Below, in pieces: positions 2,888-63,789 of a DNA stretch of 64,000 nt; the first letter of the stretch is position 1; each line of letters opens with the position of its first letter. A program made the translations under genes and the position numbers. Source of the stretch: Bdellovibrionales bacterium. Its GTDB lineage: Bacteria > Bdellovibrionota > Bdellovibrionia > Bdellovibrionales > JAUICD01. The notes under the pieces were generated by a model, which worked only from the letters and a program-made list of their open reading frames with translations, searched no databases and had not been told where the DNA came from. The stretch is from positions 553,145 through 617,144 of the forward strand of contig OZ241914.1 of assembly GCA_965203875.1 (NCBI GenBank), given 5' to 3'.

Positions 2888-2895
2888 CTAAGGTT

Positions 2896-9110: not shown

Positions 9111-9275
9111 AAGACTAATCATCCCAACATAACATCACTGATACTTACAAGATAAAAACACTGTTAAAACACAACACTGATAGAAAATACATATGGTAAA
9201 ATATTCCCTGTATTTATTTGAGAAAAATTAACATTTGATGACAGTTTTTACATATAAAATGTTTTCACTATCTTA

Positions 9276-9457
9276 CTTATGACCTTAGGTCGGTCTGTTT
9301 CGCTACGTGTGTTATTAACAAAGAAAACCTTGAGCTGATTCTTTTGTAGTTTACCTTGAACGTTGCACAACTTTTTTAATAAATGCACCCTGGCTTCACT
9401 TTCGGCCTTTGGCCTAATCGTTCCACCAGTGCACATTTATTAAAAACGAAGGGCCTT
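9276..9457 (-). repeat. One full hairpin-repeat unit (9332-9457) followed by a half unit (9276-9331)
   Basis: 9332-9457 is the reverse complement of ...taaggcccttcgtttttaataaatgtgcactggtggaacgattaggccaaaggccgaaagtgaagccagggtgcatttattaaaaaagttgtgcaacgttcaaggtaaactacaaaagaatcagctc. 9276-9331 matches the L-module plus the left half of the hairpin (aaggttttctttgttaataacacacgtagcgaaacagaccgacctaaggtca). Confidence 0.85.
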
Positions 9458-9530
9458 ATTCTAAAGTTCTTGGGCATCCTGGTCGATCTAAACCTACATA
9501 CAGCAACAAAAAACCAGAAAAGTAGGCCCC

Positions 9531-14247: not shown

Positions 14248-14271
14248 AAGCTAACCTTTTTATCCATAAAA

Positions 14272-15300: not shown

Positions 15301-15471
15301 CTGTTTATCTCAAAAGTTCTTATCCAAAATCGCTTACACAGTTAGATTGACAGCCTCAGCGTATCATCAACCTAGATACTGAAACTCAACACTAGGAAGA
15401 GCGTAAGGCTACAACCACCCTTTAGTATTGGATAATATAACTAAAAAAATGTCAAATATATGGCATTGACC

Positions 15472-21014: not shown

Positions 21015-21017
21015 TAA

Positions 21018-21761
21018 ATGAGTCTACCAAGTAAGACTTTTCTTATTGGTGAATATGCGGTACTTAATAAAGGAGCCGCAATTATCTTAAACACAAAACC
21101 TAGGTTTGAAATGCAAAACGGTAAGTTTTGTGACCCTCACCATTCTAAAGGAGGTTTCGGAGCATCTAGTGCAGCTTGGATTTTTAAAAATAAAATTTTC
21201 GATAAAAATCCAAAAACTATCATATCCAAATATGTTAAAGACACCTGGAGTGGAGTAGGAATTCCGCCCAGCGGAGTAGACGTAATATCACAAATGGTAG
21301 GCAAGGTTTTTTCAATAGATTTATCCAGCATGAAAATTACATCTGACGACTGGAACTTCTATGATTTTTTTATAGTGAGAACCGGAAATAAAATACCAAC
21401 CTATAAACATTTGGAACAATTGGATAATGTATATCAATTTAATAACCTAACTGAGTTATCTAGAAAAGCTCTAGCTTTATTTATCAAAAAAGATAAAAAA
21501 TTTTTTGAATATTTAAAACAATTTGATCAGGAGCTTGCTAGATTGAATTTATATTTGAATGAATCTGCAAAACTAAAAAAGAAAATAATGAAGATAGATG
21601 GTGTTGTATACACCAGAGCTTGCGGAGCTATGGGTGCCGACACAATAATTGTATTTATACTTCCTGATAAAAATACAACAGTAGAAAAAGAGCTTTTAAA
21701 ACTAAATTTAGACATTGTAGCTACACAAAATGATATCTGCGAAGGTATGTATGATATTTAA
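21018..21761 (+). CDS. mvaK2: Phosphomevalonate kinase-like GHMP kinase (short, 247 aa)
   Basis: N-terminal KTFLIGEYAVLNKGAAII (PMK GEYxVL pattern) and the GHMP motif GGFGASSAA. It lies between mvaA and mvaD. Confidence 0.6.
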   Translation: MSLPSKTFLIGEYAVLNKGAAIILNTKPRFEMQNGKFCDPHHSKGGFGASSAAWIFKNKIFDKNPKTIISKYVKDTWSGVGIPPSGVDVISQMVGKVFSIDLSSMKITSDDWNFYDFFIVRTGNKIPTYKHLEQLDNVYQFNNLTELSRKALALFIKKDKKFFEYLKQFDQELARLNLYLNESAKLKKKIMKIDGVVYTRACGAMGADTIIVFILPDKNTTVEKELLKLNLDIVATQNDICEGMYDI

Positions 21762-22671
21762 AGCATCTGCTCCATCAAATTTAGCTTTGGTAAAATATAT
21801 GGGAAAAAGATCAAAGGATAATTTCCCAATAAATTCATCACTTTCCATAACTCTAGATCATTTGAAAACTACTGTGGAATTAGAACAAAGTAATGCTGAT
21901 CAATTTCAAAACAACGAACTAAAGCTTGAACAAAAAGAGTGTAAAAGATTTTTAGACCATCTAAAATTTCTAAAAGATAAATTCTGTGTTGATGAATGTT
22001 TTAAAATCAAATCCTATAATAACTTCCCTGCTAGCTCTGGATTTGCTAGCTCAGCCAGCAGTTTTGCTGCACTTACATTAGCTTTTGCAGAATTCTTACG
22101 CTCAAAAAACAGGCGTCCTGACATTGAAACATTATCTGCGTTAAGTAGAAGGGGTTCTGGGTCATCTTGCAGAAGTTTTTTTGCACCATGGTGTCTATGG
22201 GATCATGTAACCGGAAAAGCTAGCAAAATTGATTTGCCAGATTATAAATTTATATTTCTATCGGTTATAATTTCTAAAAAGAAAAAGATCTCCTCATCTT
22301 TGGCTCATCAAATAGTTCAAAGCTCGCTACTGTATGATGGAAGAGCAAAGAGAGCACAGGAGCGTTTAGATTTGATTATTGAAAATTTAAAAAAAGACAA
22401 CTGGCAAAATTTATTTCAATTAATAAAAGCAGAATTTTGGGATATGATGGGTTTGTTTCATACTTCCATGCCTGGATTTTTTTACATAGAACCTGGTTCA
22501 ATCGAAATATTAAAAAATGTAGAAAAAATTTGGCATGATCATAAAACAGGTCCATTAGTAACAATGGATGCAGCTTCAAGCGTACATCTAATTTTCAAAC
22601 CACAAGATAGTAACATTGCATTAAATATGAAAAACAATCTGAACTTTCCATATATATATCATGAAAGTTAA
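21730..22671 (+). CDS. mvaD: Diphosphomevalonate decarboxylase
   Basis: ASAPSNLALVKYMGKR (NIAxIKYWGK-like), the GHMP motif SSGFASSASSFAAL and RRGSGSSCRS. Confidence 0.85.
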   Translation: MISAKVCMIFKASAPSNLALVKYMGKRSKDNFPINSSLSITLDHLKTTVELEQSNADQFQNNELKLEQKECKRFLDHLKFLKDKFCVDECFKIKSYNNFPASSGFASSASSFAALTLAFAEFLRSKNRRPDIETLSALSRRGSGSSCRSFFAPWCLWDHVTGKASKIDLPDYKFIFLSVIISKKKKISSSLAHQIVQSSLLYDGRAKRAQERLDLIIENLKKDNWQNLFQLIKAEFWDMMGLFHTSMPGFFYIEPGSIEILKNVEKIWHDHKTGPLVTMDAASSVHLIFKPQDSNIALNMKNNLNFPYIYHES

Positions 22672-23521
22672 TGTTTTTGGAAAAGTCATTTTATCTGGAG
22701 AACACTCTGTGCTCAGGGGCAAGAATGCAATCTCTGTGCCTGTAAAGCAAAAAAAATTAGAGTTACAATTTGAACCAAATAGCTGTTTACAAATAGAGTA
22801 TAATCTAAATGGAAAACAAAATAAAAAAGCACAAGCCTTGATAGAAAATATTTTTCTTAAAGCATCTGAGCTACTAGATATAACAGTTGGCGGTACAGTT
22901 ATAATCAACAGCAATTTAAATTTAGGCCAAGGTATCGGGGGCAGTGCTGCTATGTGCACTGCTGTAGGTAAGGTTTTATTAAATTTAAATTTAATAAAGC
23001 AATATGATATCCTAGATTTTTGTACCAACCTAGAAAATATGTTTCATAAAGAAAGTAGCGGTTTAGATATAGCTGTATGCCTTGAAGAAAAACCTATTTT
23101 ATATAACAGAAAAGAAAAAGTTATAGAAATAATTAAACCTGTCTATCAACCTAATCTTGCCATAATTAATTCTGGAATAAATAGTAACACTTCGTATTGT
23201 GTAGAAATGGTAAAACAATTTTATAAAAACTCCAAGATTGCACCTGATATAGACGACAGGATGAACTCTGCTACAGAATATATATATAATTCATTAACAA
23301 GTGGTGATGAAAATAAATTGATAACAGGAATGAACATAGCTTTAGAATGTTTTACTCAATGGGGATTAGTTTCTAATATTAACAAAGTTATAAAACAAAC
23401 ATTTTTAGATGGAGCAGTTGCAGTAAAACCAACTGGTGCAGGTTTAGGTGGTAATGTACTTGCTCTGTTCAAAAGACCTGTCAAATTACCCTACACCGCA
23501 ATTAGCCTAGAAGTCCTTTGA
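22661..23521 (+). CDS. mvaK1: Mevalonate kinase
   Basis: FGKVILSGEHSVLRGKNAISVPV (MVK GKxILxGEHxV motif), the GHMP motif LGQGIGGSAAMCTAV, and C-terminal KPTGAGLGGNVLALF. Confidence 0.8.
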   Translation: MKVNVFGKVILSGEHSVLRGKNAISVPVKQKKLELQFEPNSCLQIEYNLNGKQNKKAQALIENIFLKASELLDITVGGTVIINSNLNLGQGIGGSAAMCTAVGKVLLNLNLIKQYDILDFCTNLENMFHKESSGLDIAVCLEEKPILYNRKEKVIEIIKPVYQPNLAIINSGINSNTSYCVEMVKQFYKNSKIAPDIDDRMNSATEYIYNSLTSGDENKLITGMNIALECFTQWGLVSNINKVIKQTFLDGAVAVKPTGAGLGGNVLALFKRPVKLPYTAISLEVL

Positions 23522-25513: not shown

Positions 25514-26767
25514 ATGAAAGTCAACCAAATATATCATGGTGATAACCTTCATTTTATGCCTGATATGAAGCCTGAAAGTATAGATTTAATTTATATTGAT
25601 CCACCATTTGGAACACAGAGTTTATGGCAATCTAAAGCGTTTAGGGAAAAAGTACAAGAATTAAAGTTTTATGATATTTTTGGAGGCGGTGACTCAGGAT
25701 ATATAAATTTTATGGTCCCAAGGCTAAGGCAGATGCACAGGCTTTTAAAACCTACTGGCTCTTTGTTTGTTCACCTGGATTGGCGAATGAGTCATTGTAT
25801 TAAGATGGAGCTGGACAAAATATTTGGAGTTACAAATTCAGCTTCTTCAAAAACAAATTTTATTAATGAAATCATTTGGTTTTATCCAAATGGAGGGGGA
25901 AGAGGTAAATCTCGATTAAATAAAAAACACGACACCATACTATGGTACGCCAAAGATAAAGCACAATTCAAATACAACTGGAAAGACATTTCATTGACAA
26001 GGAACAAGGATCAAAAAACTTTTGGAGGATATTTTAAAAAAGATAAAAAAGGAACCTATCAGGAGGTAAGATCAAACAATAAAATCTACAAGTACTATGT
26101 AGATGAACCAAAAAATAATGACGATGTGTGGTTTTTAAATATCATCTCACAAAGAGATAAGACTGAAAGGCTAGGTTATCCAACTCAAAAACCTCTAGAT
26201 TTACTTAAAAGAATTATACTAATGGCCTCAGATAAAAATGATCTTATTGCAGATTTTTTTTGTGGCTGCGGAACAGCTATTGATGCTGCTCAAATATTAG
26301 ATAGAAGATGGATAGGAATGGATGCAAGTCATACAGCTTGTGAAGTTATGCAAAAAAGAATGGAAGATAGGCATAGTCTTTTTATTGGAATAGACAAAAA
26401 GCCTATGACTTATGAAGAATTTAAAAAACTTAAGCCTTTACAATTTGAAAAAGAAGCTGTCCGTTATATTGGCGGTGTGACAAATGATGTGCAAATTGGA
26501 GATGGAGGAATTGATGGCAGATTAGCTTTTGACGGAACACCAATACAAGTAAAAAAGTCTGAAAAACCAATGGGAGATACAGATCATTTTAGGAGTTTTT
26601 ACATGCCACTAAAAGAACATGGGAGAGGTATTTTTATTACTTTAAGCGGCTATACAAATCCAGCAAAACAGAGAGCCAATGATTGGCGTAAAGAAGGTTT
26701 AGATATTCAATTATTAGATATAAAAGATATTCTGGCTGGCAGATTCAGAGAACAACCAGCAGCATGA
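25514..26767 (+). CDS. DNA methyltransferase (N6-adenine/N4-cytosine, beta-class order) fused to a C-terminal Mrr-like PD-(D/E)XK domain
   Basis: Motif IV DLIYIDPPF near the N-terminus, YPTQKP, and motif I ADFFCGCGTAIDAA…WIGMD. In the C-terminal ~110 aa (nt ~26441-26767), GDGGIDGRLAFDGTPIQVKKSEK…GRGIFITLSGYTNPAKQRAN…IQLLDIKDIL parallels the Mrr catalytic-domain pattern D-GIDG…(i)Q-K…GvfiTTsxFtxxA…LiDgxxL. Confidence 0.75.
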   Translation: MKVNQIYHGDNLHFMPDMKPESIDLIYIDPPFGTQSLWQSKAFREKVQELKFYDIFGGGDSGYINFMVPRLRQMHRLLKPTGSLFVHLDWRMSHCIKMELDKIFGVTNSASSKTNFINEIIWFYPNGGGRGKSRLNKKHDTILWYAKDKAQFKYNWKDISLTRNKDQKTFGGYFKKDKKGTYQEVRSNNKIYKYYVDEPKNNDDVWFLNIISQRDKTERLGYPTQKPLDLLKRIILMASDKNDLIADFFCGCGTAIDAAQILDRRWIGMDASHTACEVMQKRMEDRHSLFIGIDKKPMTYEEFKKLKPLQFEKEAVRYIGGVTNDVQIGDGGIDGRLAFDGTPIQVKKSEKPMGDTDHFRSFYMPLKEHGRGIFITLSGYTNPAKQRANDWRKEGLDIQLLDIKDILAGRFREQPAA

Positions 26768-28955: not shown

Positions 28956-29743
28956 CTAATAAGTGGGCAAATTAGGTTTCAACAACTTGCGTACTTTGGA
29001 TTTTCTCCCGAAACCAAGTAAACCAAGTGCAAAAGGTGGATTATAATAGTTGTATAAATCGATAGGTATCATATATCTAACATCATCACCAAGGACGCCT
29101 TGCATCTTTATATGTGCTGCTAAAGTAACATCAGCACCATTTTCAACAAATAGTTCAGCCGTTTTCCAATATTCAGACATAGCCATTTTGTGTAGTACTT
29201 TAGTCCGTCCTTAAAAGTAGTATTTACATTACTTCCGTAATCAATCAATAGCTGCATTTTATTAAGCTCTTGTTTGCTTTGACCAGATATTGCCAATGCC
29301 ATTAAAGCAGTAGCACCATCAAAGGATCTTCTTTGATCTAGCAGCACATCAATTTCATCTGACAGATCTATAAAAGTTTGAATGAATTCAAGTGAGATAT
29401 TCTTTCTTGCAGCGTAGTGCAATTTATTTTCACCCCATTTGTTTACTGACTCTATATTCAGACCATTTTTTGTTAATAAAATTAGTGCAGATACACTCTG
29501 TACTATGTGTGCAAGTGTGTTGTGAGAGTTATTAAATTTTGCATTTACATTAGCTCCTTGGTCAATGATATGCTTAATTTGATCTAGATCAGGTTTGCGT
29601 TTATTAACCGCATTAAAAAGTTGTTCATCTAATTTTTCCTGCTTTAACGTTAAGGCTCGAGCACAATCGTAGGATGTTGTACTAGCAGATGCATGTGATA
29701 CACATACTAGGAAAATAAAATAGACACCAAAACTTCTCATCAC
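28956..29743 (-). pseudogene. Secreted ankyrin-repeat protein gene split by a 1-nt frameshift (paralog of 29839..30678)
   Basis: ORFs 29120..29743 and 28956..29186 together align along the full length of the intact paralog. The frame changes near 29208-29216 (…NVNTTFK | GRTKVLHKMAMSEYWKTAELFVENGADV versus the paralog …NAAVKKNRTTALHKAAKYGYLKAAELLIENGASV). Confidence 0.7.
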
Positions 29744-29838
29744 GAGATGGTAACATACATCTTACAAAGTGTAAGTATTTTAATGATCTACGTTTATAAA
29801 TAATTTGTAAATATATAAGTAACTTTTTCAAGTTTCAG

Positions 29839-30678
29839 CTACCGTACTTTGTCACGATACGGTCTATACTCTGCATTAGAGTTTAATACTCTAGGTAGAG
29901 TAGGCCTCAGCAATGTACGTGCTTTGGAGTTTTTCCTGAAATCCTCAAAATGTGCGTGATACTGATACAAATCTATGGGTAGCACATGTCTAGCTCTATG
30001 ATCAAAGCCAAGCTTTAACTTTGCCATTGCATCAACACTTGCACCATTTTCAATTAATAATTCGGCAGCTTTCAAATATCCGTACTTGGCTGCTTTGTGT
30101 AGTGCTGTTGTTCTATTCTTCTTAACAGCAGCATTTACATCACTTCCGTTATCAATCAACAGCTGCATTTTCTCAAGCTTTTGTTTACTTTCACCAGATG
30201 ATGCTAATACCATCAAAGGAGTAGCACCGTCATAGGTTCTTCTTTGATCTAACAGTGCACCGCTGTCTTCGCTTGAAAGTTCTATGAAAGCTTTAATTAA
30301 TCCAAGTGGGGTATTTCTTTTTTCAGCGTAGTGCAGTCTGTTTTCACCCCCTCTATCTACTGATCCTAAATGTAGGCCATTTTCTGCCAATAGGACTAGT
30401 GTAGACACACCCTTTACTGCATGTGCAAGTGTTTTGCGAGACCGTCCAAACTTTGCATTTACATTAGCTCCCTGACCTATAAGATACTTAATTCGATCTA
30501 GCTTTGGCCTTCGTTTAGTAACTGCACTAAAAAGTTGTTCATCTAATTTTCTTTGTTCCAACATCAAAGCTTGAGTACAAGCGGAGGATGTTGTGCTACC
30601 TGAAACTGAGGTATGTGCACATACCAAAAAGAAAATACAAAATATAACACAATTTTTCACCGCAAAACAGTAACACAT
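29839..30678 (-). CDS. Secreted ankyrin-repeat protein
   Basis: Signal-like N-terminus (VIFCIFFLVCAHTSVSG) and ANK motifs (…TALHKAAKYGYLKAAELLIENGASVD…, GQGANVNA…). It is a tandem paralog of the downstream gene. Confidence 0.8.
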   Translation of the reverse strand: MCYCFAVKNCVIFCIFFLVCAHTSVSGSTTSSACTQALMLEQRKLDEQLFSAVTKRRPKLDRIKYLIGQGANVNAKFGRSRKTLAHAVKGVSTLVLLAENGLHLGSVDRGGENRLHYAEKRNTPLGLIKAFIELSSEDSGALLDQRRTYDGATPLMVLASSGESKQKLEKMQLLIDNGSDVNAAVKKNRTTALHKAAKYGYLKAAELLIENGASVDAMAKLKLGFDHRARHVLPIDLYQYHAHFEDFRKNSKARTLLRPTLPRVLNSNAEYRPYRDKVR

Positions 30679-33778: not shown

Positions 33779-34963
33779 GTGCTTATGAATCACTCTATGA
33801 ATGAATTAAAACAGCGTTTGCAGGACTTAAAACAGAAGATTATAGAAACAGAACAAGCTCAGATAAAGCTAAGCGAACAGGACACCAGACAAGGATTGAT
33901 AAACCCGCTGTTTGAAGCACTAGGGTGGGATTTTTCTGACTTCAGATCTATCAGAAGTGAATTGAGACACAAAAAATACAATAACCCCGTGGATTATGCT
34001 TTCTACAACAGTCAAAAAAATTCCACAAAAAATCAGGATAAAAATACACAAGGCAACATTCCTATTTTATTGCTGGAAGCCAAGGCCCTTGGAACTGATC
34101 CGAATAAACCTAGAATAGTAAAACAGTTGTGTGCTTACTTAGGTGAGATGGGTGTTCAGTGGGGAGTAATAACAGATGGAAATAAGTATGTTATGTATAA
34201 CTCCAGGTCAGGTGCTTCTTTTGAAGATCAGAAGTTTATAACTTTACAGATAAAGACATTTGATACAGATGATGGTATCCCTCTACAAGCTCTAGCTGAA
34301 AAGTTTTTTGCTCTATTAAGTCGAAAATGTCTTGAAAATGTTGGAATCCAAGAAACATATGAAACTGTAGCCATGGACAGACAAATTGAAGATGCTTGGG
34401 AATCTCTTTTAACAGAACCTTTTGATACACTTGCCAGTGCAATAAGAAAAGAGTTTAAACAAGATAGGGTTAAAGTTGACCAAAATCTAAAAGTTACCCT
34501 GAAACAAATTATATCCTATTTTGAGAACAGAAAAGATGATGAGGGCCGAATACAGTTTGATTATAATAATCAGGGTAATTTGAGTGATGCTATAATGCAT
34601 AAAATTGTTGAGTTACAACAAGGATCTGATGGCAAGGTAGATACTAGTAAACTATCGGTAGTAGGTCCTAAGCGAATTTCAGTTAGAGATTTACTAAAAA
34701 GTGGTTTTTTAGAAGAAGGAGATCCTTTAAGGCTGGAGTTTAAAGGTGAAGTTGCCTGGGGTAGAGTTACTGGTAATGGAGAGATTGAAGTTGGTGGAAA
34801 GGTTTATACAAGTCCTTCAAGAGCTGGTCAGTCTGTCACTGACAGAAGTTGTAATGGATGGACGTATTGGCAATACAGAGACAAAGATGAATGGAAATCA
34901 CTAGGCCACTTGCGTACTCTGTATATGGGACAATCAGACACTGAGCCAAAGAAAGCTGTATAA
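33779..34963 (+). CDS. PD-(D/E)XK (HsdR-N-terminal-like) nuclease domain protein with a C-terminal RAMA-like domain
   Basis: N-terminal SEQDTRQGLINPLFEALGWDF…VDYAF…ILLLEAKALG…QLCAYL…WGVITDGNKYVMYN (D…ExK pattern as in type I R-subunit N-termini). C-terminal ISVRDLLKSGFLEEGDPLRLEFKGEVAWGRVTGNGEIEVGGKVYTSPSRAGQSVTDRSCNGWTYWQY matches my recollection of the restriction-enzyme/adenine-methylase-associated (RAMA) domain. Confidence 0.6.
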   Translation: MLMNHSMNELKQRLQDLKQKIIETEQAQIKLSEQDTRQGLINPLFEALGWDFSDFRSIRSELRHKKYNNPVDYAFYNSQKNSTKNQDKNTQGNIPILLLEAKALGTDPNKPRIVKQLCAYLGEMGVQWGVITDGNKYVMYNSRSGASFEDQKFITLQIKTFDTDDGIPLQALAEKFFALLSRKCLENVGIQETYETVAMDRQIEDAWESLLTEPFDTLASAIRKEFKQDRVKVDQNLKVTLKQIISYFENRKDDEGRIQFDYNNQGNLSDAIMHKIVELQQGSDGKVDTSKLSVVGPKRISVRDLLKSGFLEEGDPLRLEFKGEVAWGRVTGNGEIEVGGKVYTSPSRAGQSVTDRSCNGWTYWQYRDKDEWKSLGHLRTLYMGQSDTEPKKAV

Positions 34964-36375: not shown

Positions 36376-37194
36376 ATGAGAAAACTAACTAAAGTATACT
36401 TTGCGATACTGCTGTCTTCCTGTCTCAACATTAGGACAGTACATACCGCTGAAAAAAGTTTGGGTAAAATTTACAAAAATGACTCTAAATTTACTTGTGT
36501 TAAGGCTCTTAGTGATGAAAGAGCGTGGGATGATTTTTTAGTAGCGGCTGTACGAGGTCACTTTGTTAGTGACAATGATATACTGAATATAAAGAGAAGA
36601 CTGAATCATTACAACGGGAATACTGAATATAAACAACAGCTATTGATGTATGCAGTTTCTAATGGCAATACAACGGTTGTTAAGATTCTACGTGAAGATC
36701 CAGATATTACAGATATGAATGTTCAAGATAAGCATGGATTCACGGCTTTTCACATTGCAGTGACCAAGGGGTTCAGTCGTACAGTTAGGGCAATGATAAA
36801 ATGGCCGGAGGTTGATATAAATAAAACAGATCACAAAGGTATGACTCCTCTTATGACTGCAATAAATACTAATCCATTCTTGGCACGTGATATAATTGAT
36901 AACTCTAATATAAAAATAAACATTCAAGATAAACAATTTAAAGCAACAGCACTTCACTACGCAGTCATAGTAGATAGTGAGGTCTTGGTTAAATTGTTAT
37001 TAGCAGTTCCAGGTATAGATACAAATATGAAAGATGTAAATGGTGAAGATGTGTTTCAACTTGCAGAACATCTCAATCGTGAAAGAATCAAAGAAATTCT
37101 GGATGATTATCGTACTAACAAATTTCAAATGACTACATATAAAGTTAAAAAATTTGTTGACGATGCATTAAAAAAGCTTCGGCAGAACAGGTGA
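36376..37194 (+). CDS. Secreted ankyrin-repeat protein
   Basis: Signal-like N-terminus and ANK repeats (GNTTVVKILRED…, GFTAFHIAVTKGFSRTVRAMI, GMTPLMTAI…, TALHYAVIVDSEVLVKLLL). Confidence 0.8.
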   Translation: MRKLTKVYFAILLSSCLNIRTVHTAEKSLGKIYKNDSKFTCVKALSDERAWDDFLVAAVRGHFVSDNDILNIKRRLNHYNGNTEYKQQLLMYAVSNGNTTVVKILREDPDITDMNVQDKHGFTAFHIAVTKGFSRTVRAMIKWPEVDINKTDHKGMTPLMTAINTNPFLARDIIDNSNIKINIQDKQFKATALHYAVIVDSEVLVKLLLAVPGIDTNMKDVNGEDVFQLAEHLNRERIKEILDDYRTNKFQMTTYKVKKFVDDALKKLRQNR

Positions 37195-42513: not shown

Positions 42514-43642
42514 CGTGACTTCCATTAATTTTGAAAAATTATCTAAATTTGAAATAAAACTAAAGGTTACTTTGTCTAAAAAAGAGCTTACCAGTTCAAA
42601 CAATAAAGGAAAAAAATCTAAAAATTTAAAAAACAACGATTATAAAACAGCTATAGTCAGTAATCTTCAAAAGATTGTGTGTAATGAATTTCTGGTTAAA
42701 AATAATATGGCTCCTACAGGTTTTGCAAAACTTAGATTCAACATAGTAGGTAATAAATGTGATGTGGAGTATACTACAGACGTAAACTTATTAACTCCCA
42801 TAAATAGTATAGAAGGTGTAAATTTAAATATTTCAAATCATGAAATTAATATAACTCAAAATATGATTGATTCTTATCTCTACAGCCTAAAAAGAGAAAG
42901 TGCTAAATATGTAGTTTTAGAAGAAGACCGCAAGGTTATACCTTCTGATCTAGCGTATGTAAAGATAGAAATCTCTGATGATTTCAATTATGATTTTTCA
43001 ATAGCTTTAGATCAGCCTTTTGAGATTATAAACTTACCAAAAGCTATTATTGGCATGCGTGTAGGAGAAACCAAAACTATAAATGATCGCTTACCATCTA
43101 ATCTAAAATATAAACAATATTCTGGTAAAAATGCACAGATAAAAGTAACGGTTAATCGAGTATTGGTAGGGGATATGCCTACTATAGATGATGAATTTAG
43201 TAAAGATGCTGGGTTTGATGATGTTGTTATACTTTTAAGTAATACAATTTCTTATTTGAGATTAAAGCAAGACAGATCCGTAAATGATAAATTAAAAGAA
43301 GAAATATGCGGCCAACTATCAAGCAAATTCCCTGTTGAAATATCAGATAAAGCGATTCAGGATTATAAAGAAATGCTTGAGGAAAAATTAAAAACCGATC
43401 TTGATAAATACAAATGGTCTCAAGATGAGATAGACAATTATATAAAAAATTCTTCTACAACTCTTACGGATCAATCCAGAAAAGAGCTTATGGAGGATAG
43501 TATTTTATCGCAGTTAGCATTGTATTTTAGAAAAAGTCATAATTTTGATTATGATTTTGCTAAACTCATGCCTTTTGATGATTTACAAAAAGAAATTAAG
43601 TATCAGCTCATTAAGCTGATTGTAGAATCACAAAACTCTTAG
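42479..43642 (+). CDS. Trigger-factor-like paralog lacking the GFRxGxxP ribosome-docking motif
   Basis: The likely start is GTG at 42515, 2 nt after the tig stop. The architecture is similar: an FKBP-like segment YVKIEISDD…IIGMRVGETKTINDRLPSNLKYKQYSGKNAQIKVTVNRV and a helical C-terminus. It has no GFR motif. Confidence 0.55.
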   Translation: MLNLIKIHLVYNVTSINFEKLSKFEIKLKVTLSKKELTSSNNKGKKSKNLKNNDYKTAIVSNLQKIVCNEFLVKNNMAPTGFAKLRFNIVGNKCDVEYTTDVNLLTPINSIEGVNLNISNHEINITQNMIDSYLYSLKRESAKYVVLEEDRKVIPSDLAYVKIEISDDFNYDFSIALDQPFEIINLPKAIIGMRVGETKTINDRLPSNLKYKQYSGKNAQIKVTVNRVLVGDMPTIDDEFSKDAGFDDVVILLSNTISYLRLKQDRSVNDKLKEEICGQLSSKFPVEISDKAIQDYKEMLEEKLKTDLDKYKWSQDEIDNYIKNSSTTLTDQSRKELMEDSILSQLALYFRKSHNFDYDFAKLMPFDDLQKEIKYQLIKLIVESQNS

Positions 43643-43750
43643 CAAATCTTTTTGTAGCTTTAAGCCTTGCGGCTTACCGCTTCGCTAATCAAACATTTGA
43701 TAAAATTTAAAGACCTTTAGGCTTTAGTCTGGCCTTGAACATAAATTAGC
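43641..43750 (-). repeat. Shortened hairpin-repeat unit plus a fragment, starting within the final two bases of the tig-like stop codon (43640-43642)
   Basis: aaatctttttgtagctttaagccttgcgg…cgcttcgctaatcaaacatttgataaaatttaaagaccttta is a reverse-oriented unit with a truncated hairpin and an L-module (rc: taaaggtctttaaatttt). It is followed by ggccttgaacat (a fragment of the R-module in reverse complement). Confidence 0.6.
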
Positions 43751-43796
43751 TTACTACATTGAAAATAAACATGCAGATATATAGACTTATAAAAAC

Positions 43797-44822
43797 ATGG
43801 AAGTTGTTAAGAAAACAGATTGGCTGTTAGTCGTTGTACTGCCTATATTGATTACCTTGGTACCTGACTTATACACTAAATATCATTTCTGTGGTGATTG
43901 CTACAAATTGGATAAACAGATAGAAGACATACCAGAAGATGTAAGTGCAGATGATTTTTTCAAAAACGACTCAAAAACACAAAATATATGTAGCGATAGA
44001 ATTCCAGAAAAAACATATAGCTTTCTTGGCACCAAGTTTGGAATAGAATGTCAAACTAATTCTGGAATAATATTAAGTACATTTTCTGATCTACCTCAGC
44101 TTCAAAAGGTTGTGTCGCTTTCTACTGTAGGTGCTTTGTTAATTTTTATTTTTATCATGATACAAATGTTTTTACCTCACAGAATGCTAGCTTTAAGAGC
44201 TGGTATATCTCTTTTATTAGGTAGCATCTTAGGTAATGTGGCAGACAGGATATTGAATAAAAAAATTACTGACTTTTTGTTCATCCAAGTTAAAATTCCA
44301 TGGGAGGAAGGCTTTAGTTATAAGTTTATATGGAATTTTGCAGATGCTTTCCAGTGGGTAGGCTGTGCAATAATAATTATCTATTTGTTGAAGGGTGGAT
44401 CTATTTTATGGCCTATAGATAATTTGAGAAAGAAATATGTAACAGATAAAGATTATCAATACAAGTATTGTGTAAGGATGATGTTGTTTATAATGGCATT
44501 TGCAATAGTAACTCTTGTATATTCATACACATTTTTAAGTGTTGTATTAGATGATCCAGGATCTATAACTGACAAAAAAGAATTTTTGATCTCGTTTGTT
44601 ATAATACATGCTATATTGAGTATGATATTTATGGGAGCTATGGGGTATATAGGTTTAATTTTATCTCATAGAACTGTTGGACCTTTATTTGCATTGGAAA
44701 GATTTTTGAAAAACTTATTAGCTGGAAAAAGTGATACTTTTGAAACCAGAAAAGGTGATTATATTTTTGGAAAGCTAAAAACTATTGCAGATGATTTTTC
44801 CAAACAGCTGAAAAAACGTTAA
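43797..44822 (+). CDS. lspA: Lipoprotein signal peptidase (SPase II)-like protein with an extra 2-TM + HAMP-like C-terminal extension
   Basis: LspA motifs PDLYTKYH (DxxTK), ECQTNSGIILS (N-x-G-x-x-F/L), GSILGNVADRI…ITDFL (GNxxDR…DF) and IWNFADAFQWVG (FNxAD). The C-terminal ~140 aa add two TMs, then HRTVGPLFALERFLKNLLAGKSDTFETRKGDYIFGKLKTIADDFSKQL, which resembles a HAMP linker. Confidence 0.6.
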   Translation: MEVVKKTDWLLVVVLPILITLVPDLYTKYHFCGDCYKLDKQIEDIPEDVSADDFFKNDSKTQNICSDRIPEKTYSFLGTKFGIECQTNSGIILSTFSDLPQLQKVVSLSTVGALLIFIFIMIQMFLPHRMLALRAGISLLLGSILGNVADRILNKKITDFLFIQVKIPWEEGFSYKFIWNFADAFQWVGCAIIIIYLLKGGSILWPIDNLRKKYVTDKDYQYKYCVRMMLFIMAFAIVTLVYSYTFLSVVLDDPGSITDKKEFLISFVIIHAILSMIFMGAMGYIGLILSHRTVGPLFALERFLKNLLAGKSDTFETRKGDYIFGKLKTIADDFSKQLKKR

Positions 44823-45270
44823 AGGTCTTCAATTTTATTTAAGGCCCTTCGTTTTTAATAAATGTACACTGGCGTAACGATTAGGCCAAAGGCCGAAAGT
44901 GAAGCCAGGATGCATTTATTAAAAAAGTTGTGCAACGTTCAAGGTATATTCCAACAGATTCCCTAAGGCCCTTCGTTTTTAATAAATGTACACTGGCGTA
45001 ACGATTAGGCCAAAGGCCGAAAGTGAAGCCAGGATGCATTTATTAAAAAAGTTGTGCAACGTTCAAGGTATATTCCAACAGATTCCCTAAGGCCCTTCGT
45101 TTTTAATAAGTACATATAGTTAAACGGTCCGGCCGAAGGCCAAAGTGAAGCTAGCTGTTATTTGATAAAATGTTGCCCAACGTTCAAGGTAGACTATAAA
45201 AGAATTGTCGTAAAGGTCTTCGTTTTTAATAAATGTTTACCAGCTCCCAAGGTAGATTATAAAAAAATTT
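44821..45270 (+). repeat. Mixed tandem array of hairpin-repeat units
   Basis: A truncated L-module lies at 44821-44840. Two identical 124-bp units start at 44841 and 44965. A third unit with a different hairpin starts at 45089. A hairpin-less L+R unit lies at 45212-45270. The first TAA of the array is the stop codon of the lspA-like gene (44820-44822). Confidence 0.95.
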
Positions 45271-45306
45271 ACTTTAAGTCTAAAGTTTTCCATTAATAAT
45301 AACAGT

Positions 45307-48681: not shown

Positions 48682-49728
48682 TCATAAAGTAGAGTACTCC
48701 ACAAAAACTACAAAATCTCTATTGTTAATTAAAAATTCTCTTTGAAGCATAAATCTAGCGATCAGGTTTGGCATTAAATCTGCCTCAATAGCAGAAAGCT
48801 CTCTTCTAGGTATAATTCCTGATATTAGCAGAGCACTTCCTCTGTTAAGGTTTAGTTGATCTGAAGAAATACTATTTGTACTAGTACTGAACGTAATTGA
48901 AGGCTGTGGTGCGCTTGCAGGATCATTAATTTCTTCATCTTCTGTAGTTATTGCATCTTCGGCATTAATTTCACCCGCATCAGACGCTGTACCCATGTCT
49001 TCTGCATCATTAGATGCAGGTTGGTTTTGAACGTTTGGAATAGCTTCAACCGAAACAAAAGTTACCCCACCTGTCAAAGTTACAGATTCAGGTGAAATCT
49101 CTGCAACTTCCAACCTAAGATTTAATCCAGCACTAGCTTCAGACTCAGGAAGTTTTTTGGTAATACTGAATATCTTTACAATCCTACCAGCATTAGCAGG
49201 TACAGACCATGAATCCATATTAACAACGTTAACACTCCCTTCTGCCTCTGATGTTAAATAAGAAGATAAATCTGTAATTGTACCCACATTATTTGTCATA
49301 CTTGCATTTGCTAATATTGGACTAGTTCTGGATAATGATGCATAATATACATTCAGTTTGCCAGAATCAAACACCTCAGGTTCTTTAACAGTCATTTGAG
49401 TTGTGGCAGAGCTTAACTCAGCACTAGGTTCATTAAAGCTATTAGCCACAGTTGGTATAACTGGTGGAGATACCTCCACTAAATTTTCGTATGTTTGGGA
49501 TCCTGAAAGCTCTAAACTTTTTTGCTCTAAGATGTAGTCTTTCACTCTGGAATAGATAAATGAAGAGCTGATGCCTACAGCTAAAACAAGCAGTATCACA
49601 TATGCAACAGGCTCTTTTAAAATGTCTAACAGAGATCTCTTAGAGACATACGAAGACATATCAATACCACAGTTGGCACAGTAATCATCGTCTGGTTGGT
49701 CAAAACCGCAGTTAGGACAACTTGCCAT
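48682..49728 (-). CDS. Zinc-ribbon membrane protein, hypothetical
   Basis: N-terminal CPNCG…CANCG zinc ribbon, one TM (VAYVILLVLAVGISSSFIY) and an acidic Ser/Thr-rich extracytoplasmic part. Confidence 0.5.
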   Translation of the reverse strand: MASCPNCGFDQPDDDYCANCGIDMSSYVSKRSLLDILKEPVAYVILLVLAVGISSSFIYSRVKDYILEQKSLELSGSQTYENLVEVSPPVIPTVANSFNEPSAELSSATTQMTVKEPEVFDSGKLNVYYASLSRTSPILANASMTNNVGTITDLSSYLTSEAEGSVNVVNMDSWSVPANAGRIVKIFSITKKLPESEASAGLNLRLEVAEISPESVTLTGGVTFVSVEAIPNVQNQPASNDAEDMGTASDAGEINAEDAITTEDEEINDPASAPQPSITFSTSTNSISSDQLNLNRGSALLISGIIPRRELSAIEADLMPNLIARFMLQREFLINNRDFVVFVEYSTL

Positions 49729-49792
49729 AGTCTAAAAATTATATACTAAGTATGCTATATATATAACACTTTATTTGACGCATTAAGTTTTA

Positions 49793-50674
49793 GTGTCTAA
49801 TACTTACCAAGTGTTACACAAGCCAGTCTTATTAAACGAGATTATAAAAAGCCTAAGTGAAATGGATAGGGTCACAAGCATTTTAGACGCTACCTTTGGA
49901 AGAGGTGGTCATTTGGTAGCCATTCACAATGCATTTAGAAAAGCAAAAATAGTAGCTATCGATAGAGACTTAGAGGCCATACAATTTGCAAAGGATAACG
50001 TTTCAAAGTTATTTAACCTTGACAGTATTGAGATTCATCACATGAACTTTTCTAGAGCTTATACCCTAAAAAAAACTTTCGATGCAATTATTGTAGATCT
50101 AGGAGTATGCTCCTCACAACTGGAGAGTGCACATAGAGGATTCAGTTTTAGATTGGATGGGCCACTTGATATGCGGATGAATACCGAGGAAAAGTTATTG
50201 GCTTCACATTTAGTAAATAATTTAAACTATAAACAGCTCTGTGAGTTGTTTATTAAATATGGCCAGGTGACAAGACCACAAAAAGTAGTTAATGCTATTA
50301 TACATCATAGAAAAAATAAAAAAATAGATTCAACTCTTGAGCTTGCAAATATTATTACCACACAAAATAAAAAAACTAAAATGCATCCAGCTACAAACTA
50401 CTTTATGGCATTGAGAATTAAAGTAAATAATGAACTAGATAGTTTATCAGAATCCTTAGATTCTTTAATAGACCAACTACTACCTGGTGGTCGTTTGATG
50501 GTTATATCGTTCCACTCGCTTGAAGATAGAATTATTAAGTTTAATTTTAAAAATAGTAGAGTAGGAAAACAGTTAAATAAAAAAGTGATAAAGCCCAGCC
50601 AGGATGAGATCAAAGATAATCCAAGGTCTAGGAGTGCAAAACTAAGAATTTTTATTAAAGGCCCTTCGTTTTGA
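49793..50674 (+). CDS. rsmH: 16S rRNA (cytosine1402-N4)-methyltransferase RsmH (MraW)
   Basis: HKPVLLNE, DATFGRGGH, VDLGVCSSQL, ISFHSLEDRIIK and NPRSRSAKLR. GTG start. The last 5 codons and the TGA lie inside a repeat L-module. Confidence 0.9.
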   Translation: MSNTYQVLHKPVLLNEIIKSLSEMDRVTSILDATFGRGGHLVAIHNAFRKAKIVAIDRDLEAIQFAKDNVSKLFNLDSIEIHHMNFSRAYTLKKTFDAIIVDLGVCSSQLESAHRGFSFRLDGPLDMRMNTEEKLLASHLVNNLNYKQLCELFIKYGQVTRPQKVVNAIIHHRKNKKIDSTLELANIITTQNKKTKMHPATNYFMALRIKVNNELDSLSESLDSLIDQLLPGGRLMVISFHSLEDRIIKFNFKNSRVGKQLNKKVIKPSQDEIKDNPRSRSAKLRIFIKGPSF

Positions 50675-50998
50675 CAAATGCTTGCTAGTGTAGTGGAAAA
50701 ACCGAAGGTTTTGAAACGGAACTAGGCGAGCATTTGATCAAAACGTTGTGCAACGTTCAAGGTAGACTACGAAAGAATTGCCTAAAGGTCTTCAATTTTG
50801 TCAAATGCAAGCTAGCGTAGTGACAAGACCAGAGGTCTAAACGTAGCTAGGCTTGCATTTGATAAAATGTTTACCAGCTCTCAAGGTATATTCCAACAGA
50901 CTATCTAAAGGTCTTCATTTTTAATAAGTGCACATAGCGAAACGGCAAGGCCGAAGGCCTGAGTATAGTTATGCATGCTTATTAAAAATTGAAAACCT
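50657..50998 (+). repeat. Array of three hairpin-repeat units with three different hairpins, between rsmH and ftsL
   Basis: Units start at 50657, 50784 and 50907. The L-modules (aaaggcccttcgtttt / aaaggtcttcaatttt / aaaggtcttcattttt) and R-modules are conserved, and the hairpins differ. Unit 3 ends with aaaaattgaaaacctc, an inverted copy of an L-module. Confidence 0.9.
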
Positions 50999-51002
50999 CT
51001 GA

Positions 51003-51308
51003 TTGGAAATGTACCATACTACTGTGACCGTAGTAAGACCCTTGATCAGTTTTGTAATCATCATAATAAGCCTGCTTGTAGTTGTCTTTTTTAGAATGGA
51101 AGTGCGAAGACTCGGATACGAAGTGTTTAAACTTACTCAGATAGAAAAACAAGAGCTAGATGAGTATAGAAAAAAACAAATACACCTTTCAAGGTTAACC
51201 AGATCAGACAGAATAGAGGAATTTTCAACAAATCAACTTGGCCTAAGTCATGCTAAACCTGGCCAAATTATACAGTTGGTAGCAGACGGTGCTGCTATCG
51301 AAAGATAG
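51003..51308 (+). CDS. ftsL: Cell division protein FtsL-like
   Basis: ~100 aa with a single TM (ISFVIIIISLLVVVFF) and a short coiled coil. It lies between rsmH and ftsI. The likely start is ATG at 51009. Confidence 0.6.
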   Translation: MEMYHTTVTVVRPLISFVIIIISLLVVVFFRMEVRRLGYEVFKLTQIEKQELDEYRKKQIHLSRLTRSDRIEEFSTNQLGLSHAKPGQIIQLVADGAAIER

Positions 51309-51319
51309 GATGTAAAACT

Positions 51320-53233
51320 TTGTCCAGATTGAATGTTATAATGTCTTTGTTTGTACTTGCTTGGGCTGGGCTTTTAGTTAGGCTAGCTACAGTGCAAGTT
51401 TTGCCTAACAAAAAATTATCAGATCTAAGACATAAACAATACGAATCAAGCATCACTCTAAACGCTGTAAGAGGTAACATCTTGGATCGAAACGGTGTAG
51501 AGTTGGCTAGCTCAATATCTGTATATTCATTATTTGCAGACCCACATATAATAAAAAATCCAAAAACTCTAAGCAAAAAAATTTCTAAAAAATTAAACTT
51601 GCCATACAAAGATGTTTTAAAAAAGCTAAGTAATAAAGATTCAAGATTTGTCTGGATAAAAAGAAAGCTAGATGCTTCAGTCAGAGATAAAATAAACTCT
51701 TGGAAAGAGTATGGTATTGGATTCATCGAAGAGTCACAACGAATTTATCCAAAAGGAAGTGTTTTAAGTCAGGTGTTAGGTTTCGTTGGAAATGATGGAA
51801 AGGGACTCGAAGGATTAGAAGGTTACTATGACGATCTATTAGCGGGTAAAAGTTATAAAAAAGTAATACTAAGAGACGCAAAAAGAAGACCACTTCTAGG
51901 AGAAAGAAGTTTCTTTTTTGATAGACCTGAGGGAAAAAGCATACAACTAACAGTCGATCAGCAATTACAGTATAAACTTGCACAAGAACTAGATGGTACT
52001 GTTAGACAATTCAAGGCAGATTCTGCTTTAGGAATTATTTTAGATGTCAATACATCAGAAGTTATAGCTATGGGAAACTACCCTTTTTTTGACGCCAACA
52101 TGGCTTTGAAAACTCCAGCTCGTGCAAGAAGAAATAAGTCGGTCACGGATTCATTTGAACCAGGCAGTACTTTTAAACCGTTCACAATAGCTGCAGCTCT
52201 GGAAGAAAATTTAATATCACCTAATGATGAGTATGATTGCAAGATGGGTAGTATAAAAGTAGATGGTCATACAATATCGGAGGCAGAAGGCAGAGAATTT
52301 GGCAAACTTACTGTGATAGATATCTTGGCCAAATCATCCAACATATGCATAAGTAAAATTGCTCTAAAAATTAAAGATCAAGTTTTTAGAGAATATATAG
52401 ACCTATTTGGTTTTGGGCATAAAACCGATGTAGATTTTTGGGGAGAAAGTTATGGTATTTTACCCAAAACACCTTGGAAAAAAGTTAAATCTAGTACAAT
52501 TGCATTTGGACATGGAATAAGCGTTACTCCTATACAAATAGCTAATGCATACGCTATGCTGGCCAACGGAGGTATACTTAACCAACCTTATATCTTAAGA
52601 CATGTGTTAGATTCAGAAGGTAATACAATTACTGATAATACCAAAAATCGCTCACCTAAAAGAGTTTTAAGCAAAAAGACGGCAAAAAAAATTAAACTAA
52701 TGCTAATGGCTGCTACCAGTAAAGATGGAACAGGGGCTAAAGCCAGAGTAATTGGTTACCACGTTGCTGGTAAAACTGGAACAGCACAAAAAGTATCTCC
52801 AGATGGAAAAGGATATCTAAAGGACGAACATATATCCAGTTTTGCTGGATTTGTACCTGCAAACGATCCTAAGTTTGTTATATACATTGCAGTTGACAAT
52901 CCTAAAATAAAATACTTTGGCTCAGAAGTGGCGGCACCAATTTTTTCTAAACTAGCATACCAAGCTCTTTTACAAGAAGGAATTCAACCTGCTGTAATCA
53001 CTAAAGAGCAAATATATACTACTCCAACCACAACAATATCTAGAAAAATAGCTAGCACTCCAGCAGGCAAGCTGCCAGATTTAGAAGGCCTATCTTTAAA
53101 AGAAGTCATGCATTTGTTAAAAGGTGCTGATATAAAAACTACCGTAGTAGGAGCTGGTACCGTGGTTAGCATGAAACCCAAAGCCAACACGCCACTGTCT
53201 GAAATCCAGAATTTATACTTATTTTTAGAGTAA
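51320..53233 (+). CDS. ftsI: Class B penicillin-binding protein (FtsI/PBP3-like transpeptidase) with a C-terminal PASTA-like domain
   Basis: An N-terminal TM, a dimerisation domain, SxxK (PGSTFKPF), SxN (KSSN) and KTGT (GKTGTA). The C-terminal LPDLEGLSLKEVMHLLKGADIKTTVVGAGTVVSMKP is PASTA-like. Confidence 0.9.
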   Translation: MSRLNVIMSLFVLAWAGLLVRLATVQVLPNKKLSDLRHKQYESSITLNAVRGNILDRNGVELASSISVYSLFADPHIIKNPKTLSKKISKKLNLPYKDVLKKLSNKDSRFVWIKRKLDASVRDKINSWKEYGIGFIEESQRIYPKGSVLSQVLGFVGNDGKGLEGLEGYYDDLLAGKSYKKVILRDAKRRPLLGERSFFFDRPEGKSIQLTVDQQLQYKLAQELDGTVRQFKADSALGIILDVNTSEVIAMGNYPFFDANMALKTPARARRNKSVTDSFEPGSTFKPFTIAAALEENLISPNDEYDCKMGSIKVDGHTISEAEGREFGKLTVIDILAKSSNICISKIALKIKDQVFREYIDLFGFGHKTDVDFWGESYGILPKTPWKKVKSSTIAFGHGISVTPIQIANAYAMLANGGILNQPYILRHVLDSEGNTITDNTKNRSPKRVLSKKTAKKIKLMLMAATSKDGTGAKARVIGYHVAGKTGTAQKVSPDGKGYLKDEHISSFAGFVPANDPKFVIYIAVDNPKIKYFGSEVAAPIFSKLAYQALLQEGIQPAVITKEQIYTTPTTTISRKIASTPAGKLPDLEGLSLKEVMHLLKGADIKTTVVGAGTVVSMKPKANTPLSEIQNLYLFLE

Positions 53234-63297: not shown

Positions 63298-63385
63298 TGG
63301 TGCCTCCGGGGAGACTCGAACTCCCAAGGTGATGAACACCGGTGGATTTTGAGTCCACTGCGTCTACCAGTTCCGCCACAGAGGC
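63298..63385 (-). tRNA. tRNA-Leu (anticodon CAA), CCA encoded
   Basis: Reverse complement GCCTCTGTGGCGGAACTGGTAGACGCAGTGGACTCAAAATCCACCGGTGTTCATCACCTTGGGAGTTCGAGTCTCCCCGGAGGCACCA. Acceptor GCCTCTG/CGGAGGC (one G-U pair), anticodon arm GTGGA-CTCAAAA-TCCAC, a long variable arm and T-arm GGGAG-TTCGAGT-CTCCC. Confidence 0.9.
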
Positions 63386-63519: not shown

Positions 63520-63650
63520 TGTTCATCGAAGTTGAACTTACAATGAAGATAGATGTGTGGTTTGTAGAGGCTTTCAAGCTGCCCAAAAGAGCAGCGTACC
63601 CCAGAAAGCCACACACCCATCTTCGTTGTATTGAAAAACAAAGATTAAAA
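63520..63650 (-). repeat. Second class-B long hairpin element
   Basis: It shares with 30793-30869 the core ggctttcaagc-[inner hairpin]-gcgtacc-nnn-gaaagcc and the flank ttgttgtatt[ag]aaaaac. Its outer stem (acaatgaagatagatgtgtgg / ccacacacccatcttcgttgt) and inner hairpin (gctgc…gcagc) have different sequences. Confidence 0.75.
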
Positions 63651-63654
63651 ACTT

Positions 63655-63789
63655 TAGGCCTCAAGAAAATCTTTCGGAATATACCTTGAACGTTGGTGAA
63701 CATTCTATCAAATTCTTGCCTAGTTTAGTTACAAGACCTTCGGTCTTTCCACTACACTAGCAAGCTTTTGATAGAATCAAAGACCCTTA
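63655..63789 (-). repeat. Hairpin-repeat unit (class with ctag…cactac…ctagc hairpin)
   Basis: It is similar to the reverse complement of unit 50784-50906: ggaatataccttgaacgttggtgaacattctatcaaattcttgcctagtttagttacaagaccttcggtctttccactacactagcaagcttttgatagaatcaaagaccctta. Confidence 0.85.

Follow-up and report, generated by a model that had tools for sequence, protein, structure and literature searches.

The array between rsmH and ftsL

We analysed a 64-kb stretch of the Bdellovibrionales contig OZ241914.1 (hereafter the window; 35% G+C), and in particular the DNA that separates its rsmH and ftsL genes. Here lies a head-to-tail array of three modular repeat units of ~125 nt (50656-50988, + strand), the unit being built of a left flank, L, then a hairpin of ~65 nt, H, then a right flank, R. 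The features of this locus, called array C below, are these (ORF, open reading frame):

49793-50674, +: rsmH, 16S rRNA m4C1402 methyltransferase (ORF, homologues and C-terminal alignment)
50656-50782, +: unit 1; L 50656-50672, H 50673-50739 (beta subfamily, GAA triloop), R 50740-50782 (Rb type 1)
50783-50905, +: unit 2; L 50783-50799, H 50800-50863 (beta subfamily, AGA triloop), R 50864-50905 (Rb type 2)
50906-50988, +: unit 3; L 50906-50922, H 50923-50988 (alpha subfamily, imperfect stem), without R
50989-51008, +: probable native ftsL leader, TTGAAAAC...ATT..AA, 5' of the ATG and not repeat DNA (octamer common to L001, a fully syntenic locus of a relative with RsmH 68% identical)
51009-51308, +: ftsL (Pfam FtsL; N-terminus MYHTTVTVVRP aligns with MYSIIMVVVRP of L001)
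51320-53233, +: ftsI, 3' of ftsL (Pfam Transpeptidase and PBP_dimer)

Units 1 and 2 match the family profile at nhmmer E=2.6e-29 and 2e-30, with covariance model scores of 120.1 and 119.2 bits, and the nhmmer match of unit 3 is confined to model positions 1-87. A sequence-only reading of the window had described three units with variable hairpins in constant L and R flanks; this anatomy stands, except that unit 3 has no R. The strings that it quoted were all recovered, at or within 2 nt of where it had put them, including the stem arms (50675-50688/50722-50736, 50802-50816/50846-50861 and 50923-50938/50968-50983) and the apical mini-hairpins (50699-50711, 50826-50838 and 50948-50960). Copies that it cited outside the array are likewise present, with coordinates shifted by 1-2 nt (gaccGAAggtc at 2939-2949, ggccAAAggcc at 44884-44894).

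The end of rsmH, att aaa ggc cct tcg ttt TGA (50654-50674), lies within L of unit 1, as had been proposed. In an alignment of 14 RsmH sequences the conserved core stops at ...RSAKLRIFxK, beyond which there are only short variable tails. Because the core ends before the tail encoded by L, the last four codons of rsmH (GPSF) and its TGA stop are, judged from the alignment, repeat-encoded; insertion of the array has rewritten the rsmH stop and these final four codons. At the other end of the array, TTGAAAAC, found at -20 here, is also found at -21 in L001, and we therefore placed the end of the repeat at ~50988, 20 nt before the ftsL ATG rather than the ~10 nt first suggested. The intervening 50989-51008 is probably the native ftsL leader.

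A dispersed and mosaic repeat family

The array had been thought special to the dcw junction. A search of the window with a profile built from the units (nhmmer) and with a covariance model instead found the same family at seven other loci, giving eight loci in all. Together these hold 11 full units and some 8 partial ones, which make up about 3% of the DNA. The seven are:

1-71, +: cut unit (3' part of the hairpin and R with an internal insertion, truncated by the window start); profile match, repeat family D8
2895-3284, +: array A, a tandem of three units (98-99% identical) closing with a partial L; Tandem Repeats Finder period 125, 3.1 copies
8381-8506, -: unit E, a single L-H-R inside an Rpn/YhgA-like pseudogene; profile match
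9248-9458, -: array D, full unit 9334-9458 and degenerate L+H 9248-9333, upstream of the Rpn pseudogene; profile and covariance model
43636-43719, -: unit G, partial L+H of the tetraloop (GCAA) subfamily; nhmmer 9.7e-6, covariance model 43.9 bits
44820-45272, +: array B, a solo L, two identical units, a third unit and a hairpin-less L+R unit; profile and tandem-repeat matches
63643-63789, -: unit F (63664-63789), then an L-like remnant (63643-63663); profile and covariance model

L has the sequence TAARGGYYTTCRWTTTT and begins TAARGGYYTTC..., its start often being TAA or TA. R is AAAAWGTTnnnCAACGTTCAAGGTA with either of two tails after it, TAGACTATAAAAGAA.. or TATATTCCAACAGA.., and the modules reassort. 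Copies 9334 and 44840 are alike in L (100%), in H (94%) and in the first half of R, Ra (100%), but differ in Rb type; H of unit 1 is nearest to copy 63664 (84%), and the R halves of unit 1 are nearest to other copies. Varied hairpins in constant flanks are therefore a trait of a mosaic family and not of the rsmH-ftsL junction. R is also able to exist by itself, since elsewhere in the same genome (L114, 8795-8866) an R module (AAAAAAGTTGCCCAACGTTCAAAG..CTCCAACAGA) stands alone, with neither L nor hairpin.

The neighbours of the units are unrelated (a nucleotidyl transferase gene, lspA, the Rpn pseudogene, a tRNA). The start of each of arrays A, B and C falls between -18 and +8 nt of a co-oriented gene's stop codon, array A lying 7 nt past the stop of gene 2168-2887 and the TAA of the first, solo L of array B being itself the stop codon of an lspA-like gene. 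Unit G is anti-oriented to both adjoining genes, and the locus of unit F lies upstream of tRNA-Leu(CAA) (63298-63385). Within arrays A, B, C and D all units are direct. Relative to transcription, the unambiguous loci are divided between two co-oriented (array C and unit E) and two anti-oriented (unit G and the L001 copy). GC skew in the window tracks gene orientation and carries no signal of replication direction.

Compared with the otherwise syntenic L002 (4307-5323), the lspA-like gene (43797-44822, +) of the window has the opposite orientation, and here it is bracketed by inverted family copies, G (-) and array B (+), over 43636-45272. This layout suggests that inverted L modules recombined to give the inversion. 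An L variant (TGAGGCCTAAAGTTTTTAAT / TAAAGGTTCTAAAGTTTTTAAT) was seen at 63643-63663 (-) and in contig L084 (99-215), in both cases with a shared ~20-nt motif, TTTTTMAATACAACRAAG, that comes after the L variant in unit F but sits within a hairpin in L084. Its arrangement hints at the nested insertion of a further small module.

Unit E interrupts a gene remnant:

8005-9122, -: Rpn-family nuclease pseudogene (Rpn/YhgA-like; PF04754, Transposase_31 / TIGR01784), N-terminal part frameshifted and body split by unit E

ORF 8840-8370 matches the Rpn family up to the residue where unit E begins and then continues into the unit, and ORF 8322-8005 is the C-terminal helix-turn-helix (HTH) part of the family; joined across unit E, the parts match TIGR01784 positions 65-272 in one stretch. 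The intact paralogue P0121 (78% identity) has about 15 residues (PLLGILKSSHRVDKV) at the position of unit E, compared with which the window pseudogene is short by about 9-10 codons. No target duplication was found at the flanks of the single units E and F. Among the 61 ORFs of the window the broken Rpn-family gene is the only transposase-like one, with no Y1/HUH transposase, RAYT domain or integrase, and no transposase was seen beside units in a further 63 kb of the same genome. This genome has six or more other Rpn paralogues (P0123, P0124, P0127, the P0121-like P0132, L113 5328-6407 and L083 2163-3257), several with small HTH_Rpn_C ORFs downstream. A partnership of Rpn genes with the repeats was considered and set aside: two of ~7 paralogues adjoin units, but the loci had been chosen for their Rpn genes, and the count is not evidence.

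Comparison of strains shows how quickly the arrays change. L115 (ENA ERZ25067941 contig_1) is 99.84% identical to window 41009-61308, and L086, L113 and L114 are other parts of essentially the same genome as the window (99.84% identity). Array C differs from L115 at one position, a C/T at 50958 that turns a G-C pair into G.T in the apical stem of unit 3. In array B a whole 124-nt unit is replaced (window 44840-44963, L115 3832-3955): in the window a solo L precedes a pair of identical units, and L115 has a full L-H-R followed by the same L and one such unit. Window and L115 have TT and CG respectively at 45120-45121, changing C-G to T.G in the inner TAGC/GCTA helix. Both stem single-nucleotide polymorphisms (SNPs) between these near-identical strains create G.U and not A.C. 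SNPs relative to L115 number 7 in 763 repeat bases vs 26 in 19,413 others (odds ratio 6.9, Fisher p=2e-4). The contig L084, 96.4% identical over 856 nt of unique DNA, also has unit E inserted in the Rpn gene, and upstream of that gene, at the site of array D, it carries units of other subfamilies than those of the window; both its ends fall in repeats. The further 63 kb (L086, L113, L114) contain only one locus with a full unit, the solitary R and a relic L, so the window is unusually repeat-rich.

The array had also been said to interrupt a normally tight junction. In the closest relatives, this junction holds a 236-nt spacer with a diverged unit (L001) or an octamer microsatellite (L112, RsmH 66% identical); a tight rsmH-ftsL junction was seen in an Oligoflexia metagenome-assembled genome (MAG). 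The L001 spacer cannot be aligned to that of the window except for its last ~20 nt. Read on the opposite strand it contains TAAAGGTCTTC, then an unrelated hairpin with a 19-bp stem, then GTTGCCCA, and this element is, by its order of modules, a diverged L-H-R unit. In L112 the microsatellite, (GAYTGCCY)n, lies 3' of rsmH at 2100-2301 and reaches the contig end, and an L module with yet another hairpin lies directly past the stop codon of a neighbouring gene. The rsmH-ftsL junction of this clade is thus a recurrent landing place for repeats and not a site of conserved tight coupling. A possible remnant of the L112 octamer microsatellite, CTGATTGCCC, was noted in the L001 spacer. We also tried GAAGACCTTTA in that spacer as a terminator plus promoter, and rejected it, as the scanner calls none; the 11-mer alone is not above chance (1 match, 0.61 expected), and what stands is the minus-strand unit of L, hairpin and GTTGCCCA.

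In the collections searched beyond these relatives the family was not found. Exact-pattern scans with AAAANGTTNNNCAACGTTCAAGGTA gave 0 matches in 185,579 GTDB-representative genomes and 0 in JGI metagenomes, as did TCAAGGTAGACTATAAAAGA in JGI metagenomes, and blastn of the array gave none among plasmids, phages and 5,426 E. coli genomes. Matches to GTTNNNCAACGTTCAAGGTA in 25 viral contigs were attributed to chance: all are one same phage coding sequence, with no hairpin and covariance model scores of 18-21 bits. An RsmH-based search for related loci brought no close relatives, RsmH being at most 46% identical among the matches listed, of which the closest taxon-named are from Bdellovibrionota/Oligoflexia MAGs at ~45% identity.

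Hairpin structure and strand asymmetry

Each hairpin consists of four helices: an outer stem with a T-run and an A-run, a conserved bulged G followed by TAGC/GCTA, a 2-bp inner helix, and the apical mini-hairpin, which is GGCC-GAA-GGCC or a tetraloop variant. The loops are purine-rich, and the bulged G is conserved on the 3' arm. As RNA, units 1, 2 and 3 have minimum free energies of -42.0, -41.6 and -32.7 kcal/mol (z = -4.2, -5.9 and -4.9), and none of 200 shuffles folded as well. RNAalifold on 12 copies gave 25 pairs, 16 with double-sided changes. A second small hairpin in R (AAYGTT-N4-AACGTT) was dropped, as it has no compensatory change and is broken in AGCTCT variants.

Compensatory stem changes, claimed by the sequence-only reading, were borne out in a model-guided alignment of 16 distinct copies, using 25 pairs and 500 shuffles. 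Paired cells make up 94.2% vs 34-44% when the partner column is slid; double-sided changes occur in 15 of the 25 pairs, with 47 cells compensated, and no shuffle (0/500) reaches the observed values. The 2-bp inner helix changes from AC/GT to GT/AC in step with the beta hairpin type. The covariation events are few and mostly at the level of subfamilies.

The predicted G-U pairing on the sense strand also held. On the sense strand of the element the consensus pairs include G.U in 22 cells (13 columns) vs A.C in 5 cells (4 columns), and this strand folds better than the antisense in every copy, both as RNA and with DNA parameters. DNA parameters reproduce the asymmetry, which therefore does not discriminate between RNA and single-stranded DNA; it points to a single-stranded stage of one particular strand, RNA or DNA alike. 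The further claim, of selection on an RNA rather than a DNA cruciform, keeps the sense-strand G.U excess in its favour and is countered by this same asymmetry in DNA, by the 2:2 orientation and by the ~7-fold SNP density.

No terminator-like site was found on either strand in 49600-51400, where promoter-like sites are not above chance. Each stem has its T-run 5' and its A-run 3' on both strands, so the units are unable to be intrinsic terminators either way. In the whole window Rfam 15 at the gathering threshold matches only a tRNA, and a permissive Rfam search of 50600-51060 gave only chance matches (miRNA-precursor hairpins and STnc490, 14-21 bits vs thresholds of 50-100).

Nature of the family and its genomic setting

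We consider it probable that the rsmH-ftsL insert brings together, as a local cluster, three copies of a palindromic dispersed repeat (REP/ERIC/BOX-like) that is modular, multi-copy and lineage-specific, and that spreads by a strand-specific step before recombination reshapes it. The family is a previously undescribed one within the well-known class of dispersed small palindromic repeats, its units being short, non-coding, multi-copy, intergenic, foldable as palindromes, lineage-restricted in scans and strain-variable. The presence of unit E in a pseudogene, the reassortment of modules, the swap of a unit between strains and the SNP density point to mobile, recombining DNA.

The units would be selfish or near-neutral DNA that spreads by a hairpin-dependent, strand-specific step, and arrays would then grow, shrink and exchange modules by recombination between the repeated L and R. 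They could persist at this junction by letting transcription read through from rsmH to ftsL-ftsI, the array presumably being tolerated between rsmH and ftsL because it is without terminators. Within the mRNA it would form three long stems of 25-30 bp, likely substrates for double- and single-strand RNases, which may shift the relative stability of the rsmH and ftsL-ftsI segments.

Several points weigh against this account. Read-through transcription and RNase processing are what we infer from the anatomy and from the precedents of ERIC, Correia and BOX (PMC3184786). No mobilising enzyme was identified, and there is no clean pair of empty and filled sites with defined ends, the only comparison being the paralogue of 78% identity, which implies a loss of ~9-10 codons. 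The placement of all three large arrays at stop codons could reflect function or target preference and not neutrality. Finally, in relatives with RsmH only 66-68% identical L and the start of R seem to be kept and H is replaced, a pattern that suggests constraint beyond pure selfishness.

The family might instead be a selected cis-acting RNA module (an mRNA stabiliser, processing site or translational insulator), with the array tuning the ratio of rsmH to ftsL-ftsI; we hold this to be an appreciable but minority possibility. It accords with the G.U excess, with both stem SNPs between near-identical strains yielding G.U and not A.C, with the purine-rich loops and the covarying inner helix, and with L and R being conserved where H is not. 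Arrays A, B and C, moreover, begin at the stop codon of an upstream gene that runs the same way. There is no terminator, and ERIC, Correia and BOX are co-transcribed, some of them altering mRNA stability (PMC3184786). However, the strand asymmetry is unchanged with DNA parameters, orientation is evenly divided at the unambiguous loci, and SNPs are ~7-fold denser within repeats. The content of arrays turns over between strains, one unit sits in a pseudogene, and the covariation comes from few subfamily-level events that could also stem from hairpin-templated repair of a DNA palindrome.

A related proposal, which we put forward only tentatively and think rather unlikely, is that L and the start of R are conserved single-stranded recognition sequences for which the hairpin is needed only as a shape. 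Its grounds are that the flanks are retained in relatives with RsmH just 62-68% identical, where another palindrome has taken the place of the hairpin, and that the wobble bias is strand-specific. The family would then be either a new class of elements, mobilised as single strands in a hairpin-dependent way and lacking terminal inverted repeats (TIRs) and target duplication, with Rpn nucleases as one candidate enzyme, or a selected RNA module at the stop codons of operon genes.

That the units are classical miniature inverted-repeat transposable elements (MITEs), cut and pasted by a transposase encoded elsewhere and bearing TIRs and a target duplication, is improbable. They are indeed small, non-coding, multi-copy and dispersed, with one inside a gene; L often starts TAA or TA, and unit 3 appears flanked by an inverted pair (50907-50923 and 50983-51000). 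Yet the right arm of this pair, which the sequence-only reading had taken for a MITE-like TIR, is largely the A-run of the hairpin followed by the apparently conserved ftsL leader shared with L001. The ends of L and R are not inverted copies, L (TAARGGYYTTC...) not being complementary to the R ends ...TAGACTATAAAAGAAYTGYC or ...TATATTCCAACAGA. Units E and F lack a target duplication, the one transposase-family gene among the 61 ORFs is broken, and the arrays are direct tandems with R-L junctions.

Mobilisation of the element as a folded single DNA strand, in the style of attC, IS200/IS605 ends or REP-RAYT, would make L and R the recognition sites and allow the hairpin any sequence, with the PD-(D/E)XK nucleases of the Rpn family as a possible enzyme. 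Flanks that stay constant as palindromes vary, even across relatives, the conserved bulged G and a wobble bias that is strand-specific and holds with DNA parameters all speak for it, and units lie just upstream of or within two Rpn paralogues (D and E in the window; L083/L086). But five other Rpn paralogues have no adjoining unit, the association is biased by the sampling of loci for their Rpn genes, and unit E disrupts its Rpn gene and does not flank it. There is also no Y1/HUH transposase or integrase in the window, and Rpn proteins are not known to act on hairpins (see PMC5350276). We rate this mechanism as very improbable. The idea of an array dedicated to regulating the dcw genes, as a leader, riboswitch or attenuator, suggested by its position between rsmH and ftsL and its strong structure, is scarcely credible, given that the same units stand beside unrelated genes (nucleotidyl transferase, lspA, Rpn pseudogene, tRNA), that there is neither an Rfam match nor a terminator, and that the orthologous spacers of L001 and L112 differ in content.

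As a dispersed palindromic repeat, the family can be compared with several known systems. ERIC/IRU elements (~127 bp) are close in size to the present units (123-127 nt) and are likewise multi-copy imperfect palindromes with a long hairpin, intergenic and at gene 3' ends inside transcription units (PMC3184786). ERIC-type elements, however, have terminal inverted repeats and a flanking TA duplication (PMC3184786), whereas L and R here are not inverted copies, there is no duplication, direct tandem arrays are typical, and blastn against 5,426 E. coli genomes found no sequence similarity. BOX of S. pneumoniae, boxA-boxB(n)-boxC, is similarly modular and intergenic, with a variable number of modules, a stable predicted structure and potential for co-transcription (PMC3184786). 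Here the whole L-H-R is iterated and not an internal module, the host phylum is unrelated and no IS with matching ends was seen; BOX is compared here by its described features.

REP and BIME elements share with the present family high-copy extragenic palindromes in mosaics with short linker motifs, and compensatory stem changes. REPs are 20-40 nt with a GTAG or CGTC head (PMC3733652), and BIMEs combine them in alternating orientation and in association with RAYT transposases (PMC2817692). In contrast, our hairpin is ~65 nt, its stem starts with a T-run and then WATAAAYG or TCAAATG with no conserved GTAG/CGTC head, the units are all direct and there is no RAYT in the window. Integron attC sites (RYYYAAC...GTTRRRY, with ORF cassettes and a nearby intI) differ in that our units abut without a cassette and no integrase lies in the window; R starts GTTKNSC, which misfits RRR, and a matching AAC box on the left is absent. 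Rickettsia palindromic elements (RPE) offer a parallel for unit E (126 nt), which lies within a coding frame where the upstream ORF reads through it, and for the repeat-encoded tail gained by rsmH. The host gene of unit E is, however, an already frameshifted pseudogene, and evidence that working proteins tolerate peptides encoded by the repeat goes no further than the four-residue RsmH tail. Finally, the Correia/NEMIS elements of Neisseria are about 100-155 bp and often co-transcribed with adjoining genes, whose expression can be affected; by the account of De Gregorio et al. (cited in PMC3184786), their transcripts reportedly fold into hairpins that are RNase III substrates. Of the 26-bp terminal inverted repeats, TA duplication and IHF site of Correia elements, none recurs consistently in the present family, in which only copies 43636 and 63664 match WATCAANNNNTTR by eye.

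For annotation, the rsmH-ftsL insert is best recorded as a repeat array and not as a riboswitch or leader, and the annotated RsmH C-terminus as repeat-derived. The repeat family, not described before, belongs to an uncultured Bdellovibrionota-like lineage and is so dense that it can break short-read assemblies (contig L084 has repeats at both its ends); it remodels gene ends and may drive the lspA inversion. Its differences between strains only 0.16% apart make it a useful strain marker. If the strand-specific structural constraint is real, the family would be a clean system for studying how repeats without TIRs or target duplications spread, and any role they have in mRNA.

Further genes of this genome were noted in passing. 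Defence-rich regions of the same genome and of sister strains (L085 15405-16839, L114 16803-18231, L083 4248-9137) are interleaved with Rpn paralogues and include Thoeris (ThsA_Macro, ThsB_TIR), a Type ISP restriction enzyme, AAA_13, SLFN/AlbA_2 and RhuM-like genes. Two restriction-modification-like genes stand amid housekeeping DNA of the window, a fused N6/N4 DNA methylase with an Mrr_cat nuclease domain (25514-26767) and a protein with HSDR_N and RAMA domains (33779-34963). Three ankyrin-repeat proteins are encoded at 29120-30678 and 36376-37194, the first two being tandem paralogues with DNA 75-81% identical (repeat families D3 and D5). A mevalonate-pathway cluster (18737-23521; HMG-CoA reductase, diphosphomevalonate decarboxylase-like, GHMP kinases, FMN-dependent dehydrogenase) lies beside rplT and beside a stretch (10028-16281) with the type IV pilus genes pilMNOPQ and a gene for a prepilin peptidase.

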